DNA from: Alphaproteobacteria bacterium
GTDB taxonomy: Bacteria > Pseudomonadota > Alphaproteobacteria > Rs-D84
Assembly (NCBI GenBank): GCA_017427405.1
Contig: JAFRSV010000012.1
Span: 5,103-69,102 of the forward strand
DNA length: 64,000 nucleotides
Reading direction: 5' to 3'
A program made the position numbers and the translations under genes. Every line of letters starts with the position of its first letter. Position 1 is the stretch's first letter. The notes under the pieces were generated by a model, which ran no database searches, was not told the DNA's origin, and saw only the letters and a program-made list of their open reading frames with translations. Shown piece by piece: positions 9,297-48,251 of the stretch.

Positions 9297-10670
9297 ATGA
9301 CAAGATTTACAAAAATAACTGCTTCGATTGGTCCAAGTTGCGAAAGTCCGGCCGTTTTGCGAAAAATGATTTTGGCGGGCGTAAATGTGTGCCGTATGAA
9401 TTTTAGTCACGATACTGGCGACGCCCAGGGTAAAAAAATTGACGCGATTCGTAAAATATCGGCGGAATTAAATATGCCCGTGGGGGTGTTGGTTGATTTG
9501 CAGGGGCCAAAGCACCGAATCGGTAATTTCAAAACCGAAGAAAAATATCCAATTTCGGTGGGACAAACATTTGTTTTTGATTCTGACTCTGCGCCGGGTG
9601 ATTCGCGGCGTGTGCAATTGCCGGATGCGGATGTTATGCGTTCGTTGCATGTCGGTGAAAGAATTTTGTTAAATGACGGAAAAATCGAAATGCAGGTGAC
9701 CGAAGTTTTACCCGATTCGGTTAAAACCAAGGTAATTCGCGGAACGGAAATTTGGTCGCGTCGCGGATTTAACTTGCCGGATACAATTGTTGATACATCG
9801 GTTTTAACCGAAAAGGATAGGGCGGATTTAGAATATGCTTTACCTAAAAATCCGGATTGGGTGGCGGTTTCTTTTGTGCAACGGCCCGAAGATATTGCCG
9901 AAGTTCGTGATTTTATTACCGCGCATACCGCACGCCCAGTAAAAATAATGGCAAAAATAGAACGCAAAAGCGCGGTTGAACAAATTGATGAAATTGCGCG
10001 CGCGGCGGACGGAATTATGATTGCGCGTGGGGATATGGCGGTTGAATTGCCTTTTGAACAAGTGCCGGCGATTTCACGACATATTATACGCGAATGTCGG
10101 CGATTAAATCGACCGGTCGTTATGGCAACACAAATGCTGGGGTCGATGGTGGAAAGTGAATTTCCAACGCGTGCGGAAATAAGTGATGTCGCAAATGCCG
10201 CGTATTTGCGCGTGGATTCGACAATGACATCCGAAGAAACAACTATTGGTGCGAATCCGTTAAATGTTATTGAAACAATGGCAAAGATTTTAGGTTATTC
10301 GGACGACGATGCGATGGCAAATCCAAATGATTGGGTTCGTGCGGAAAATCCGTCGGATAATAATGATTGGTCGCGGTCGGTGTCTTCGATGGCGTACCTT
10401 AATAAAGCAAGTGCGATAATTGTTTTTGCACGTGACACCGAATCGGTAATAAAGATTTCTTGTCGGCGGCCGGATACAAAAGTTATTGCCGTGTGTGATG
10501 ATGAAATTGTTGCAAATCAACTTTGTTTGGTGCGTGGTGTGTTTCCGGTCTATACGCCGGATTTATTCGCACAGCGTGATTTTGTTGCCGTTGCGCATAA
10601 TGTCGATATTATGCACGGAAATATCGTTGTTGTTGATGGTGAAAATGTAAGTTTGCAAAATCTTGATTAA
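9297..10670 (+). CDS. pyk: Pyruvate kinase
   Basis: CRMNFSHD, DLQGPKHR, MAKIERKSAV, IMIARGDMAVE and MATQML motifs. Confidence 0.95.
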   Translation: MTRFTKITASIGPSCESPAVLRKMILAGVNVCRMNFSHDTGDAQGKKIDAIRKISAELNMPVGVLVDLQGPKHRIGNFKTEEKYPISVGQTFVFDSDSAPGDSRRVQLPDADVMRSLHVGERILLNDGKIEMQVTEVLPDSVKTKVIRGTEIWSRRGFNLPDTIVDTSVLTEKDRADLEYALPKNPDWVAVSFVQRPEDIAEVRDFITAHTARPVKIMAKIERKSAVEQIDEIARAADGIMIARGDMAVELPFEQVPAISRHIIRECRRLNRPVVMATQMLGSMVESEFPTRAEISDVANAAYLRVDSTMTSEETTIGANPLNVIETMAKILGYSDDDAMANPNDWVRAENPSDNNDWSRSVSSMAYLNKASAIIVFARDTESVIKISCRRPDTKVIAVCDDEIVANQLCLVRGVFPVYTPDLFAQRDFVAVAHNVDIMHGNIVVVDGENVSLQNLD

Positions 10671-18847: not shown

Positions 18848-18931
18848 TTAGTGTAAGTGGCTAGTGGTTAGTTATAAAAAACGGGTGCATTCGCACCCGC
18901 ACTAACCGCTTACACTAACACTAACCACTAA
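18848..18931. repeat. Imperfect 84-nt palindrome with two inverted stop-codon-rich heads flanking a GC hairpin, between convergent genes
   Basis: ttagtgtaagtggctagtggttagt ... GGGTGCattcGCACCC (18883..18898) ... actaaccgcttacactaacactaaccactaa. The A-run on the left acts as a T-run for mnmE transcripts. Confidence 0.8.
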
Positions 18932-18934
18932 TAA

Positions 18935-22385: not shown

Positions 22386-22740
22386 GTGTAAGTGTTAGTG
22401 GCTAGTGTTAGTCCGTCACGACCGCGGTGCGGTCATGCCGCGACGGGTGTGCGGGGCAACGCCCCGCGTTTTTTGCAAAATTCCAGAGACGCGTCACCCC
22501 GCCGAAGGGCGGGGCCCAGGCCGAGCGTAGCGAGGACTTGCTCCGCAGGAGATTTTTCATTGTGAAACAATGAAAAACATAAATGTCTGCGACGCAGGTG
22601 CTCACATACGTTCGCACTGGATCCCGGCCTTCGCCGGGATGACGGCACTCTGGAATTTTTGCACAAGAAACCAGTGTAATGCACTGATTCCACTATCCGC
22701 TTACACCAACACTAAAAAATCGCCGTTTGGCGATTTTTTT
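22386..22740. repeat. Nested composite of palindromic repeats, bounded by inverted stop-rich heads and ending in a bidirectional terminator
   Basis: Head gtgtaagtgttagtggctagtgttag (22386..) against inverted ccactatccgcttacaccaacactaa (22690..22715). An inner unit at 22475..22662 is bounded by inverted GCAAAATTCCAGAG/CTCTGGAATTTTTGC. Includes a family-B unit at 22619..22644 and the hairpin AATCGCC-gttt-GGCGATT with A/T runs at 22714..22740. Confidence 0.8.
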
Positions 22741-22744
22741 ATCC

Positions 22745-22996
22745 TTGCCCCGATTCGCAAATTTTGATAGTATCTAGGTGAACCAAGATGGGAATCTGGT
22801 TCAGGGACGTAGAACATCCCGTGTTTGTGCGGCACAAAAGTGTCGTAATCTGTTTATGGTGCTTTTGTGCCATTTCCCTGGCTGTTATTGGTCGGGGTGC
22901 CACGTAAGTGGGGGTATTCACAAACATGCCTGTTCTAACGCCCTGACCGTCCTGTTTTTGGTGACGGTTTTTTAAAATAAAACAGGGAGTAAACAG
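22745..22996 (+). promoter_or_regulatory. Structured leader copy 1: promoter, uORF, three-strand switch, terminator
   Basis: TTGCCC, 17 nt, TAGTAT (22745..22773). uORF 22788..22907. Strand 1 CCCTGGC 22876..22882, strand 2 GGTCGGGG 22890..22897, strand 3 CCCTGACC 22941..22948. Terminator GACCGTC/GACGGTT plus T-run at 22945..22973. RBS and ATG at 22997. Confidence 0.6.
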
Positions 22997-24028
22997 ATGA
23001 GGAAAATAAATTTATTCAACCGTAATATAAATTCAGCGTCATACCGCGGCAACGGGTCTCGCAAAAATGTGCCGTCATTCCGCGGAAACGTGGAATCTCC
23101 GCGGTATTGTAGAGAATCGGTCTGCGGTAAAACTGACGGGATCCCGGCTTTCGCCGGGATGACGAGAGGAAAGCGCGCTATGATGGCGAAAATATGCGGG
23201 ATGACGATGATTGCGATTACGGCGTTATTTGCCACGCCGTCATTCGCAACGCCAACGGAATTGGACAAGAAAACCGTTGCATCCAAGGCCTATGTCGACA
23301 CGAAACAGGACAAAATCGAAACCGGGTTGGTGGAGTTTAATGGCAACCCAGAACTTATGTTGCCGGCGATTACGACATATGATTCTACAAGTGGTTTGGT
23401 TGGTAATAGAATCGGTATTTTGGACCAGGAAACTGTTGCAAGTGATGAGGGTACTTTACGCATTTATAGCTATGCATATGACTATGGTTCCGAAATGGAC
23501 AATTTTGTTCCAACCGTTCGTGCCGTGGCGGATGCGCTTCAAGACGTTCAATGGTTTCCCTTTTCCTGGAACAATAACGTATTCCCCGCTGCAATCGACG
23601 CATATAGTGTGACTTTTGACCCGACATCAACACATGTAAACGGAAATTGGCCATATAATCAACAAAACTATTTGGTTCGTGCCGACACATTTGCAAATTC
23701 CCTTGCCCTGAAACAAAATAAACTGCCAGAACTAGATACTAACTTAGTGCTTGGGCAAGCTGGTAAAAGTGTACTTGCGCCAACCACGGCTGGCAATGTG
23801 ACACAGGTTGCACTTTGGGATGCCGATGGGGCAGAACCAGACGCATGGGATGTGGGTACATATTTCTCGGATGCTACCGCAGATGAACGTAACGCGATTA
23901 ATTACTCTATTCCAACCGTCGGTGCAGTAGCGGTCGGTCTTAACCAAAAACAAAACAAAATGGTATGCGCCGGTTGGGACAGTGATACGCACACCGATGA
24001 ACATTGTTGGTTGTGGAGTATAGAGTAG
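22997..24028 (+). CDS. Secreted protein paralog 1 (unknown function)
   Basis: Signal-like IAITALFATPSFA. The next ~100 aa are near-identical to the 28949 gene (TELDKKTVASKAYVDTKQDKIETGLVE...). Shared C-terminal C-x(11-12)-CWLW. Residues ~5-60 are encoded by in-frame family-B repeats. An alternative internal start lies at 23180 (MMAKICG, RBS GAGAGGAAAG). Confidence 0.65.
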   Translation: MRKINLFNRNINSASYRGNGSRKNVPSFRGNVESPRYCRESVCGKTDGIPAFAGMTRGKRAMMAKICGMTMIAITALFATPSFATPTELDKKTVASKAYVDTKQDKIETGLVEFNGNPELMLPAITTYDSTSGLVGNRIGILDQETVASDEGTLRIYSYAYDYGSEMDNFVPTVRAVADALQDVQWFPFSWNNNVFPAAIDAYSVTFDPTSTHVNGNWPYNQQNYLVRADTFANSLALKQNKLPELDTNLVLGQAGKSVLAPTTAGNVTQVALWDADGAEPDAWDVGTYFSDATADERNAINYSIPTVGAVAVGLNQKQNKMVCAGWDSDTHTDEHCWLWSIE

Positions 24029-28559: not shown

Positions 28560-28561
28560 TT

Positions 28562-28643
28562 GTTAGTGGCTGGTGGTTATCCGTCACCGCTGGTGCGGTG
28601 CCGAGACTGCGCCGGGGCTTTGCCCCGGCTTGGTGTTTGTGCG
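28562..28643. repeat. Post-stop element (stop-rich head plus two hairpins), left direct repeat of the 1.3-kb cassette
   Basis: gttagtggctggtggttatccgtcaccgctggtgcggtgccgagactgcgccggggctttgccccggcttggtgtttgtgcg. The 43-nt core 28595..28637 is identical to 29915..29957. Confidence 0.9.
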
Positions 28644-28709
28644 TCTGGTCGCGACGGAGCGGTAGCGAAGACGGATGCGCCCGTTTTTTGTTGCCGATAC
28701 TTTTTTCGC

Positions 28710-28948
28710 TTGTTTTTTATACCCATGTTTTGATAAAATATTTATATCGGTGGGTGTTCCATCGATGGGGTGTCAAGACCCGTGGTTCCGGATGTCCGTG
28801 GGGACAAAAAACACCTCCAACCCAGGGTGGTTGGAGGGCGGTGAATATAAAGAATAAACCCACTATTTTCTCGGAACATAGTCTTGAACCTCCAACCACT
28901 TGAAGTGAATTCGGTGGTTTTTTGTTACATAAAAAAGGAGGAAAATAT
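28710..28948 (+). promoter_or_regulatory. Structured leader copy 2: promoter, 5' hairpin, uORF, three-strand switch, terminator
   Basis: TTGTTT, 18 nt, TAAAAT (28710..28739). Hairpin TCGGT/ATCGA at 28747..28765. uORF 28765..28857. Strand 1 CCTCCAACC 28814..28822, strand 2 GGTTGGAGG 28829..28837, strand 3 CCTCCAACCAC 28889..28899. Terminator AACCAC...GTGGTT plus T-run to 28923. RBS AAGGAGG. Confidence 0.7.
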
Positions 28949-29878
28949 ATGAAAAAATTTATCGCGTTATCTGTATTTGCAACATTGTTTACAATGCCGT
29001 CATTTGCGGAATCAACGGAATTGGACAAGAAAACCGTGGCATCTAAGGCATATGTCGATACAAAACAAGATAAAATCGAAACCGGGTTGGTGGAACTTAA
29101 TGGGATTATGTTGCCGGCGATTACGACATATGATTCTACAAGTGGACTTGTTGGTAATAAGATAGGTATTTTGGATCAGGAAACAATTGTAAATGATGAA
29201 TTCAGCTTACGTAATTACGGTTCTGATGGTGGCTATAGTTCCGAAATGGATAATTATGTTCCAACCGTTCGTGCCGTGGTAGAAGGATTGGGGGGCAAAC
29301 AAGACATCCTTCCGGGGGCATGGACAGATACAATAAGTGTTTACGCGATGGCCTCTACCGGTGGGCAAACGATTGATTTGACCGCGACCGCGGGGGAAGT
29401 TGACCCACGTTATATCACTGCGGGTGGGTCGCAACCACTTACCAAAAAATCCGGGGCGGATAATGTTATATTGTATATCAATGGAACAAAAACATTGGCG
29501 CAGTATCAAACATCAAACTTTGGTGGAACCGGTGAGGACGCAACCGTAGGTCAAAAATATATCAAGGGTGCGTTGGTGTCGTTGGAACTGCTGAAAGATG
29601 TGTACAGTGCGTTGCATAATGAAATTCAAAATGCAACCCCAACCGGCACGCCGAACACACTTGCAAATTATGGTGCAAATGGCGCGCTGGGCAATGGGGT
29701 TGCGACCGCAAATGCGCCAACGCATAATGCGACAACCGGCGAATTGGAAAACGGCGCAAATATCGCAACCATTGCCGCCGTCGACACCCGCCAGAAAAAA
29801 CGCACCTGTGCCGGGTATGAAACCGGGCATGAAAATGATCCGGATTATTGTTGGCTTTGGGATTTTCCAGATGATTGA
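28949..29878 (+). CDS. Secreted protein paralog 2 (unknown function)
   Basis: Signal peptide MKKFIALSVFATLFTMPSFA. The N-terminal ~100 aa and the C-terminal CAG...CWLW are shared with the 22997 gene. The central ~180 aa are unrelated. Confidence 0.75.
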   Translation: MKKFIALSVFATLFTMPSFAESTELDKKTVASKAYVDTKQDKIETGLVELNGIMLPAITTYDSTSGLVGNKIGILDQETIVNDEFSLRNYGSDGGYSSEMDNYVPTVRAVVEGLGGKQDILPGAWTDTISVYAMASTGGQTIDLTATAGEVDPRYITAGGSQPLTKKSGADNVILYINGTKTLAQYQTSNFGGTGEDATVGQKYIKGALVSLELLKDVYSALHNEIQNATPTGTPNTLANYGANGALGNGVATANAPTHNATTGELENGANIATIAAVDTRQKKRTCAGYETGHENDPDYCWLWDFPDD

Positions 29879-29889
29879 TGAAAATTAGT

Positions 29890-29963
29890 GTTAGTGGTTA
29901 TCCGTCACCGCACGGCGGTGCCGAGACTGCGCCGGGGCTTTGCCCCGGCTTGGTGTTGGTGCG
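29890..29963. repeat. Post-stop element, right direct repeat of the cassette
   Basis: gttagtggttatccgtcaccgcacggcggtgccgagactgcgccggggctttgccccggcttggtgttggtgcg. The period to the left copy is 1320 nt. Confidence 0.9.
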
Positions 29964-29973
29964 GAACAAATAT

Positions 29974-30083
29974 ACCCCCCCCGGCGGTTCCGTTGGCACC
30001 CCCTTTACACAGTGAAGGAAACTACCCCACCACGTCACCGCACGGCGGTGCCGCGGTCCCCCCCTTCACAAAGTGAAGGGGAA
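29974..30083. repeat. Two tandem family-A units
   Basis: ccggcggttccgttggcaccccctttacacagtgaaggaaac and ccgcacggcggtgccgcggtcccccccttcacaaagtgaaggggaat. Confidence 0.8.
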
Positions 30084-30151
30084 TAAAAAAAATAAATTGC
30101 ATAGTGTTTTTTTTGCGGTATCATACGGGGCGTATAGCAAAGGAAGTTATT

Positions 30152-46698: not shown

Positions 46699-46833
46699 GT
46701 GTTGGCGCGTTCGTTTTTTTTCCTCGTCATACCGCGGAAACGCGGTATCCTGTCGTCATAGTTGAAGCCACCAGATACCGCTTTGCAGCGGTATGACGAC
46801 ACTAACACTACTACTACCACTTACCACTAACAC
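46692..46833. repeat. Post-stop composite: stop-rich head, two family-B palindromes, inverted head
   Basis: gtgTAAgtgttgg ... cgtcataccgcggaaacgcggtat ... gataccgctttgcagcggtatgacgac ... cactaacactactactaccacttaccactaacac. Confidence 0.8.
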
Positions 46834-46840
46834 TTTCTTC

Positions 46841-47084
46841 TTGCTTTTCGTTTTCATAATTTACTAAAGTGAAATTGTCGGCGGGTGTTCCGTCGATGGG
46901 GGGTAACGACCCGTTCATACGTTGCCAAAGTGGCGTAAAAAAACTCCAACCCGTGGGTTGGAGGGTCGTGAATAATATCGGGGATTCCCGATAAAATAAG
47001 CGCACAATACGTATGAATTGTCGTTAACCTCCAACCACTTGAAGTAATTCGGTGGTTTTTGTTTTGATACCAAGGGAGGATTCA
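46841..47084 (+). promoter_or_regulatory. Structured leader copy 3: promoter, 5' hairpin, uORF, three-strand switch, terminator
   Basis: TTGCTT, 18 nt, TAAAGT (46841..46870). The conserved block tcggcgggtgttccgtcgatgggg starts at 46878. uORF 46896..46994. Strand 1 CTCCAACC(C) 46944..46952, strand 2 GGTTGGAGG 46956..46964, strand 3 CCTCCAACCAC 47028..47038. Terminator AACCAC...GTGGTT plus T-run to 47060. RBS AGGGAGG. Confidence 0.7.
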
Positions 47085-48251
47085 TTGAGAAAAATCATTG
47101 TTGCAATTTGCGGAATGTTCATAACCATCATTTCTTTTGCAGCACCTGGACATTATGCAACACCAGATGGAACAAGCAACTTTGGTGATGCTTGGCATTT
47201 CAATGAAAACGCTACATATAATGTCGATATTGGAACAAGTTTTTACAGTGAACTGTCAGAACAGATATGTAAAAAAGAAGATTGTTCTGTAGAGTCGGGT
47301 CAAGGAACATATAATGATGAAAGAGCGATAGTATTGGATGTTGCGCGCGAGATATATAAAAATGGTGCAAAGTTTTGTACGACGCAAATTCAGGGCGCCA
47401 ATGCAAATGGCTGGTCTTATACCTGGATTGATTATTATAGCAATTCTAATTACGATAATAAATGCAGAGTTTATTGCAAACCCGGCTATGATCCAGAAAG
47501 TAATTGTGATAAAAAACTTTCAGGAGAAATCTGTGATGACCCAGATTATGGTATGTTTAATGAACATAAAATTATAAATGCTGGCAAAGGTGAAACAGGG
47601 CGATTTACAAAAGATATGGCTGTTTTTAGTGTTGATAATGAAACAGGAAGTAGTGATTCAAATCCGAAAACCGCAAAACATGTGGTGTTGGGTATAATAA
47701 AAAAAGATGAAAGTGGAAATGGGGTATTGGTTGCACCTATTCAAATTATCGCCAAAAGAGCGCATAATCCAATTGAAAGTTGGATATATAGTGCAAGTTA
47801 TCAAGAAAGTTTGGCTGCCGTAACTGTTTTATGCCCGCAAGGTTTTCAGGTTGATAATAGTGAAAAATGTGTTTTAACACCAAAATGTAAACAAGAACAA
47901 CAAGATGCCGAAAACGATGCGTTGCCAATGTGTAGTGGCTATGGGCATTATGATGCAATGCAACACACAATAAAAATACAAAGTACGGGTGGCAACAAAT
48001 GTAAGTATTATCGATGCAAAGAATCGAATTATGGATTTGAAAAAGGCAGTCAACATAAGTGTGTACCGTGTGGCGAGACAAAGAAATCTGGCGTTTTGCA
48101 CGGTGAGTGTAAAGTGTGCGCCACGGGGGAATTGTTTGATAAAAATGAGAGCAATGGTTGCAAAACGGCGCGAAAAATCACCAAAGAGAAAATGCGGGCG
48201 TGTTTTATGAAAACTGACCCCGATGAGTTTAAGACTTGTGTGAATAATTGA
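47085..48251 (+). CDS. Cys-rich secreted protein (unknown function, TTG start)
   Basis: Signal peptide MRKIIVAICGMFITIISFA. About 30 Cys, with CxxC-type spacing in the C-terminal third (KCVPCGETKKSGVLHGECKVCATGELF). Visibly AT-rich. Confidence 0.65.
   Translation: MRKIIVAICGMFITIISFAAPGHYATPDGTSNFGDAWHFNENATYNVDIGTSFYSELSEQICKKEDCSVESGQGTYNDERAIVLDVAREIYKNGAKFCTTQIQGANANGWSYTWIDYYSNSNYDNKCRVYCKPGYDPESNCDKKLSGEICDDPDYGMFNEHKIINAGKGETGRFTKDMAVFSVDNETGSSDSNPKTAKHVVLGIIKKDESGNGVLVAPIQIIAKRAHNPIESWIYSASYQESLAAVTVLCPQGFQVDNSEKCVLTPKCKQEQQDAENDALPMCSGYGHYDAMQHTIKIQSTGGNKCKYYRCKESNYGFEKGSQHKCVPCGETKKSGVLHGECKVCATGELFDKNESNGCKTARKITKEKMRACFMKTDPDEFKTCVNN

Follow-up and report, generated by a model that had tools for sequence, protein, structure and literature searches.

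Two stretches of the window, by which we mean the whole 64,000-nucleotide segment of Rs-D84 DNA analysed here, resemble each other from the −35 box of a promoter to a ribosome-binding site and cannot be aligned beyond it. The question raised by these stretches, hereafter labelled copy A (28710-28948) and copy B (46841-47084), is what the sequence between promoter and gene does. Their overall identity is 61%, and the proteins encoded immediately downstream are unrelated (best BLASTP E = 0.16). Together with the helices that are kept in relatives, this agrees with the preliminary description of the locus, which had taken the pair for a functional RNA as opposed to a recent duplication. Copy B is likely to act in cis as a 5′ leader of approximately 190 nt, with its own promoter and two mutually exclusive shapes, and to decide on termination before the gene of a secreted protein.

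The blocks shared by the two copies begin at the promoter. In both, an 18-nt spacer separates the hexamers, and 7 nt beyond the −10 box lies TCGGCGGG (at 46878 in copy B) or TCGGTGGG (at 28747 in copy A), so the equal promoter spacing reported at the outset can be read directly from the sequence. A consensus promoter scan did not call either leader promoter, and the hexamers are weak, the −35 boxes matching at 3 of 6 positions; the position of the −10 box is kept in all 14 leaders of the subfamily to which A and B belong, and this family-wide conservation is better evidence for the putative promoters than the hexamer match. The window contains two exact matches to the 24-nt block TCGGYGGGTGTTCCRTCGATGGGG, where chance predicts 0; the copies agree at 22 of its 24 positions, with both differences falling on a single pair of hairpin P1 that changes from U-A to C-G, the one compensatory change that had been proposed. 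The 20-nt ‘strand 3’ block, AACCTCCAACCACTTGAAGT, also occurs exactly twice (0 expected), and GGTTGGAGG and CCTCCAACC are confined, within the window, to leaders A and B; these exact-match counts uphold the statement that the switch strands are identical. The two copies also share a terminator. The terminator was not called by a simple scan because its loop is longer than 8 nt, and is predicted by both ViennaRNA and RNAalifold as a 7–10-bp stem followed by a U run. One statement of the preliminary description has to be corrected, namely that the central region of the two copies is simply unrelated: this region contributes helices P2b, P3 and P4, and the copies differ there by compensatory changes (two pairs in P2b and four in P3). 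The positions of all parts, and of a third copy in the window, are given in Table 1.

Table 1. Leader copies in the window and the parts assigned to them.
Feature	Positions	Strand	Evidence or remark
Copy B promoter	46841..46870	+	TTGCTT (46841-46846), 18-nt spacer, TAAAGT (46865-46870); distance from −10 box to P1, 7 nt
Copy B P1 hairpin (GUCGGCGG / CCGUCGAU)	46877..46897	+	In minimum-energy fold; 6/7 pairs covary in subfamily
Copy B G1 (GGGGG) and P2b 5′ strand (UAACGAC)	46898..46910	+	Partner 47019-47031, minimum-energy fold
Copy B P3 5′ strand	46913..46922	+	Partner 47008-47017; 6/6 P3 pairs change on both sides in subfamily
Copy B P4 hairpin (GCCA AAG UGGC)	46924..46934	+	Minimum-energy fold, subfamily alignment, RNAalifold
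Copy B C1, ‘strand 1’ (CUCCAACC), P5 5′ arm	46944..46951	+	Minimum-energy fold; invariant in subfamily
Copy B G2, ‘strand 2’ (GGUUGGAGG)	46956..46964	+	Partner C1 (fold I) or C2 (fold II)
Copy B P6 region: conserved GUGAAUAAUA, inserted hairpin 46977-46992, AAAAUAAG	46965..47003	+	Minimum-energy fold
Copy B H2 of fold II (ACAAU...AUUGU)	47004..47021	+	Loop is P3 3′ strand (47008-47017)
Copy B P2b 3′ strand and C2, ‘strand 3’ (CCUCCAACC, 47028-47036)	47019..47036	+	
Copy B putative intrinsic terminator (AACCACU ... GGUGGUU, U run)	47033..47062	+	First 4 nt shared with C2
Copy B ribosome-binding site (AAGGGAGG) and 388-aa Cys-rich ORF	47072..48251	+	TTG start at 47085; signal-peptide-like N-terminus
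Copy A promoter (28710-28739) and leader (28741-28925)	28710..28925	+	TTGTTT (28710-28715), 18-nt spacer, TAAAAT (28734-28739)
Copy A parts: P1 28746-28766, C1 28814-28822, G2 28829-28837, C2 28889-28897, terminator 28894-28919		+	
Copy A ORF, 309-aa secreted protein of a large variable family	28949..29878	+	
Third copy, canonical type (CCCYGAC/GUCGGGG), before ORF 22997-24028	22778..22986	+	Covariance model R1

The family reaches well beyond the window. For the 309-residue protein encoded after copy A there are 186 homologues, each of them either unnamed or annotated as a protein of an alphaproteobacterial metagenome-assembled genome (MAG), and three distant homologues are preceded by a leader of the same architecture in which the strands CCCYGAC/GUCGGGG replace CUCCAAC/GUUGGAG. 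We refer to the former as the canonical type and to the latter as the window type. An 18-mer of the canonical type, scanned against one genome per species, is found at approximately 70 places in gut and rumen alphaproteobacterial MAGs, including three Candidatus Enterousia species; MAG RGIG3039 accounts for about 23 pattern matches and Red_deer_3_mag_193 for 13. The remainder are scattered chance matches in other phyla, and among viral contigs the 18-mer has a single match, which is not a leader. The covariance model R1, built from 59 non-redundant leaders, has 80 matches in the fetched loci. It recognises the third window copy over its full length (112.4 bits, E = 3.5e-31), with a shortened P6. 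Copies A and B also match R1 over their full length, at the weak scores of 16 and 19 bits and with the search filters off, so their membership rests on the shared architecture and on a 14-member subfamily. This subfamily was assembled from metagenomes with a G2...C2 pattern, after which C1 was also required; 12 of 120 stretches are true leaders, most of the others being unrelated hairpins because the G2...C2 pattern reads identically on both strands. With the 12 added to A and B, the window-type set comprises 14 leaders, and these further leaders together with the weak R1 scores mark A and B, judged by their sequences, as a divergent subfamily. The inserted P6 hairpin of copy B is also present in three related leaders (L165, L205 and L225). 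Altogether the family has at least 80 predicted members in MAGs of gut and rumen Alphaproteobacteria, that is, Ca. Enterousia and its relatives. One MAG contains at least 20 of them, and a tiny genome often has at least 10; these bacteria are members of the order Rs-D84, and their genomes are below approximately 1 Mb (PMC12306168).

Compared with shuffled sequence, both window-type copies fold more stably (copy A, z = −2.9; copy B, z = −6.4) and into the same architecture, hereafter fold I. Starting from the 5′ end, hairpin P1 is followed by a long-range closing helix P2, composed of P2a (G1 with C2) and P2b, by helix P3, the short hairpin P4, hairpin P5 (C1 with G2), the P6 region and the terminator. 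Comparative data support these helices in each set of sequences. Across the 59 canonical leaders, 94.2% of cells are paired, as opposed to 80.3% in shuffled sequences and at most 46.5% when the partners are slid against each other, and both sides change in 4 of 5 pairs of P2b, all 8 of P3, 5 of 6 of P4 and 7 of 8 of P6. For the 14 window-type leaders the paired fraction of cells is 89.6% (78.1% in shuffled sequences), and 21 pairs covary, among them 6 of 7 in P1, 5 of 7 in P2b and 6 of 6 in P3; for the terminator of this subfamily the paired fraction is 89.8%, and RNAalifold, unaided, recovers P1, P2, P4, P5 and the terminator. The 80-member alignment shows both-sided change in 43 of 55 pairs. 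The pattern of conserved paired strands and variable spacers that had been noticed in the two copies holds, and is strengthened by the covariation in the 14- and 80-member sets. What had escaped the first reading is the long-range pairing in P2 and P3, hairpin H2 as an alternative, a third copy in the window and the kinship to sRNA-Xcc1.

The canonical leaders also reveal which strand is under constraint. C-G and U-G pairs alternate in many places, columns 6-21 (29 and 29) and 173-200 (32 and 26) being examples, and because the opposite strand would have C-A mismatches there, it is RNA of this strand that is constrained. Helices P5 and G2:C2 are invariant inside each subfamily, in the window type partly because the search pattern forces them to be, and so their support comes solely from differences between the subfamilies. 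A separate observation concerns the P1 apex of canonical leaders, AUGGGAAUC, which has its complement in GRUUUYCAU, the terminator loop, itself unusually large (A4 columns 10-19 and 290-303; for example, L010:9755-9764 and 9960-9972). The longest duplex between the two averages 8.0 bp, against 5.2 in shuffled sequences, and reaches at least 7 bp in 51 of 59 canonical leaders, whereas window-type leaders do not evidently show it. In canonical leaders this complementarity may represent a kissing contact by which the OFF state is held in place. On the minus strand, P5 (28814-28837 and 46944-46963) reads as a terminator-like hairpin with a T run and is called as such by the consensus scan, because an A run precedes P5.

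In a second fold (fold II), G2 pairs with C2 and not with C1, and hairpin H2 then forms with the 3′ strand of P3 as its loop. The helices G2:C2, P6 and H2 can form a three-way junction, with the internal loop AUACAA in canonical leaders and GAAUAUA in the window type, and H2 covaries between A and B (ACUAU/AUAGU and ACAAU/AUUGU) and within the window-type subfamily (one pair is A-U in 10 leaders and U-A in 4). Between the subfamilies it is wholly different with complementarity kept (AUCA/UGAU and ACAAU/AUUGU). The pair that extends G2:C2 in canonical leaders, 204-278, is U-A in 28, G-U in 21, A-U in 3, U-G in 3 and G-C in 2. Between subfamilies, C1, G2 and C2 have changed together at two positions (CCCCGAC/GUCGGGG and CUCCAAC/GUUGGAG), the pattern expected of a strand with two partners. 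This coordinated change supports the dual pairing of strand 2, which can pair with strand 1 or strand 3, and is in line with the terminator/antiterminator switch put forward in the preliminary description. The leader has two mutually exclusive folds, both with covariation. Pairing of G1 with C1, considered as an additional part of fold II, is weak (3–5 bp) in most window-type members and is not claimed here.

The two folds differ in what they leave of the terminator. In copies A and B, the 9-bp G2:C2 helix covers AACC, 4 nt of the terminator 5′ arm, and in the canonical type it covers columns 285-287, with 2–3 nt of the arm; the overlap is partial in both types. Because of this overlap, fold II should prevent termination. 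The calculated energies of fold I and of the structure with G2:C2 forced are −88.1 and −76.0, −68.6 and −58.3, and −82.0 and −61.6 kcal/mol in the three window copies; fold I is favoured by 10–20 kcal/mol in all three, which suggests that the resting state is probably OFF, that is, termination.

A co-oriented ORF with a ribosome-binding site follows 68 of 76 leaders, mostly 10–20 nt past the end of the model. Except where a repeat element intervenes, approximately 25–40 nt separate the U run from the start codon. Signal-peptide-like N-termini are found in 56 of the 68 ORFs. These ORFs fall into 8 BLAST clusters, the ORF of copy B being a singleton, and neither Pfam (8 downstream proteins) nor PHROGs (6) gave a family match; an AlphaFold2 model of the copy A protein made with 42 homologues has a pLDDT of 55, too poor for a fold search. 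The copy A locus varies between strains. The cassette of leader and ORF is absent in one strain (L005:2840-3000, corresponding to window 28560-30150), where it would lie between an MFS transporter gene and recA, and in other strains an ORF of 319 or 353 residues stands behind a near-identical leader A. The copy B locus shows no strain variation, with 12 of 12 contigs alike. The ORF behind the third window copy (22997-24028) and 11 related ORFs (for example, L009:10001-10993) are without a signal peptide; from a putative start MKKINLFNRN... they continue with a repeat-like segment (..IPAFAGMT..) ahead of the family domain.

The leader is a structured regulatory RNA that belongs to no Rfam family. 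A scan of 4227 Rfam families at gathering thresholds, with permissive local scans of the three window copies, matched none of them. Its nearest relative in Rfam is sRNA-Xcc1 (RF02221), an integron-encoded small RNA of Xanthomonas that also occurs in phages and genomic islands. The best related canonical leader scores 48.3 bits against RF02221, below the gathering threshold of 53 (local E = 1e-7), whereas copies A, B and the third copy do not match it even at E ≤ 10, and the reciprocal search of genuine Xcc1 loci with R1 returns nothing significant (5.6 bits). In this alignment the 3′ half of the canonical leader corresponds end to end to the whole RF02221 model, whose structure is that of fold II: the canonical leader can form its closing helix (here G2:C2), its P6 with an AUACAA-type internal loop and inner hairpin, and H2, and has its C-rich 3′ strand. 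As opposed to sRNA-Xcc1, where the U run directly follows the closing helix, the Rs-D84 leaders have a separate terminator that competes with that helix, additional strands G1 and C1 and hairpin P4, and are without downstream target boxes; in the window type, moreover, GAAUAUA stands in place of AUACAA.

We analysed four genuine sRNA-Xcc1 loci as controls, from phage Aaphi23, Shigella phage POCJ13, a Nitratidesulfovibrio plasmid and N. gonorrhoeae (69–86 bits). All four (L251:560-830, L252:560-810, L128:1370-1625 and L129:1370-1580) carry a1/b1-like boxes upstream that are complementary to the J strand and the H2 loop, as are P2b and P3 in the Rs-D84 leaders, and these boxes pair with the element in both minimum-energy folds computed (the plasmid and N. 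gonorrhoeae loci). At three of the four, a second copy of both boxes (a2/b2-like) abuts the ribosome-binding site of the next gene, which at the two phage loci encodes an antirepressor (ant). This is the layout of the c4 antisense system of phages P1 and P7, in whose immI operon the order is a1 b1 – c4 – a2 b2 – icd/ant; the literature that we searched holds no description of a c4-like layout at Xcc1 loci. In Rfam, c4 RNA is family RF01695, and a c4-a1b1 motif appears in PMC2864571; RF01695 has no match in the window or the related loci.

The likeness of the leaders to c4 would lie in the logic of this layout, in which two short upstream boxes are complementary to an exposed loop and an exposed strand of a structured RNA. 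Upstream boxes of this type are present in the leaders, where the J strand and the loop of H2 find their partners in the 5′ half through P2b and P3, both with strong covariation. The downstream part of the layout is not seen: the complementarity of a′ and b′ to the leader's own downstream region and to those of other leaders is 6.5 and 6.6 for the one and 5.4 and 5.5 for the other, and inspection of copies A and B by eye reveals no a2/b2-like boxes. The output differs as well, being an intrinsic terminator in the leaders and, in c4, a translation block followed by Rho termination, and so do the controlled genes, which encode secreted proteins here and antirepressors there. By analogy, the leader looks like a cis-acting, terminator-coupled derivative of a c4-like system.

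Three rival readings were weighed. In the first, the element would be an independent gene for a trans-acting sRNA that works by antisense, as sRNA-Xcc1 or c4 would, and ends at the terminator, with the downstream gene transcribed separately. The resemblance of the 3′ half of related copies to RF02221, the promoter and terminator that the element possesses and the phage c4-like layout of genuine Xcc1 loci all speak for such a gene, but we regard it as unlikely: the leaders have no downstream target boxes by the own-versus-other comparison above, they are adjacent to and co-oriented with an ORF in 68 of 76 cases, and the short distance from U run to start codon leaves no room for a second promoter. 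Moreover, P2b and P3 are copy-specific, and therefore their pairing partners must be in cis.

Very improbable, in our judgement, is a repeat that acts at the DNA level without any RNA function, such as an attC-like recombination or cassette site, an anchor for gene conversion or a MITE. The many family copies per genome, the loss of the copy A cassette in one strain and the variable ORF in others would fit such a repeat, as would the occurrence of sRNA-Xcc1 in integron cassettes (bioRxiv 10.1101/2025.06.18.660453). A DNA repeat does not, however, account for the many compensatory changes and the strand-specific G-U alternation, for the conserved order of promoter, terminator and ribosome-binding site, or for the finding that copies in the same genome differ most in the helices, where pairing is still kept. 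Attenuation by a translated leader peptide has been suggested to us by an AUG in CGAUGGGG, which opens short ORFs of 31 codons in A and 33 in B, and is scarcely credible given that this AUG is absent from leaders L164 and L248 and from the whole canonical subfamily (GGUUCGGGG), that neither length nor frame of the ORF is conserved, and that the AUG has no ribosome-binding site and is inside P1 and G1.

A cis-acting leader, the reading that we prefer, can be compared with the terminator/antiterminator expression platforms of riboswitches and T-boxes. Multi-copy c-di-GMP-I riboswitches, for example, control surface-protein genes. Similar to these platforms, the element lies 5′ of its gene and combines a predicted intrinsic terminator with a helix that competes for the terminator 5′ arm and with an anti-antiterminator (P5 and P2), and it occurs in many copies per genome before envelope or secreted proteins. 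The parts that define an attenuator are found in it: a predicted terminator hairpin with U run between leader and ribosome-binding site, and an exclusive alternative helix that overlaps the 5′ arm. As opposed to riboswitches and T-boxes, which consist of an aptamer and a short expression platform, both states of the leader are large, supported by covariation and involve almost the whole RNA; no known aptamer family was matched in Rfam and no ligand pocket was recognised.

The mechanism that we propose builds on features that are observed: the helices covary, they exclude one another and they overlap the terminator, and the gene context is as described above. In fold I, the 5′ half would zip onto the 3′ half through P2a (G1:C2), P2b and P3, with C1:G2 forming P5; the terminator arm is then left free, and the terminator can therefore form (OFF). 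In fold II, G2:C2 would close the three-way junction with P6 and H2, a shape like that of sRNA-Xcc1, and would take 4 nt (window type) or 2–3 nt (canonical type) of the terminator 5′ arm, giving read-through (ON). We infer that termination actually takes place, that OFF and ON are assigned in this sense and that an input signal exists. Because fold I is the thermodynamic ground state, expression would need a factor that shifts the RNA towards fold II or makes its 5′ half unavailable, and candidate inputs include a small ligand, a protein, another RNA and the kinetics of co-transcriptional folding. The many copies of the leader probably co-regulate a set of surface and secreted protein genes in gut Alphaproteobacteria with reduced genomes.

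A wider reading is conceivable, and we put it forward tentatively, with less confidence than the cis-acting leader itself. The leader would be a domesticated, cis-only descendant of c4 and sRNA-Xcc1, used as a bistable terminator switch that co-ordinates, or stochastically varies, dozens of surface and secreted proteins in sub-megabase Rs-D84 gut symbionts; the Rfam entry ‘sRNA-Xcc1’ would then cover no more than the 3′ half of a regulatory RNA that is larger, has two states and carries a1/b1 and a2/b2 boxes. The signal for such a bistable switch could be a ligand, a protein or the leader's own terminated transcripts. If sRNA-Xcc1, which is widely annotated, is re-read in this way, it may belong to a c4-like antisense switch before antirepressor or toxin genes, which could be tested in E. 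coli Stx phages.

For the new family itself, dozens of covarying pairs behind two competing folds represent unusually strong comparative support. The leader appears to control the main variable repertoire of secreted proteins in uncultured, genome-reduced gut and rumen Alphaproteobacteria, of which it is not known how they interact with host or neighbours (PMC12306168), and it offers an experimental handle, as a reporter fusion could show when the secreted-protein genes are switched on.

The surroundings of the leaders contain further repeats. Directly after the stop codons of many genes, we identified heptad-like repeats of the form GTTAGTG/GTAAGTG (14 matches, 3.7 expected), located in the window at 18853-18932, 22394-22407, 28562-28575, 29890-29903 and 46818-46831 and present in related loci as well. 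Just past mutL and upstream of the copy B promoter lies a long imperfect palindrome with two sub-hairpins (46711-46809), similar to REP or MITE elements. In many of the Red_deer MAG copies, repeats related to it (GCCGTCATTCCGGCGAA...) are inserted between leader and ORF.
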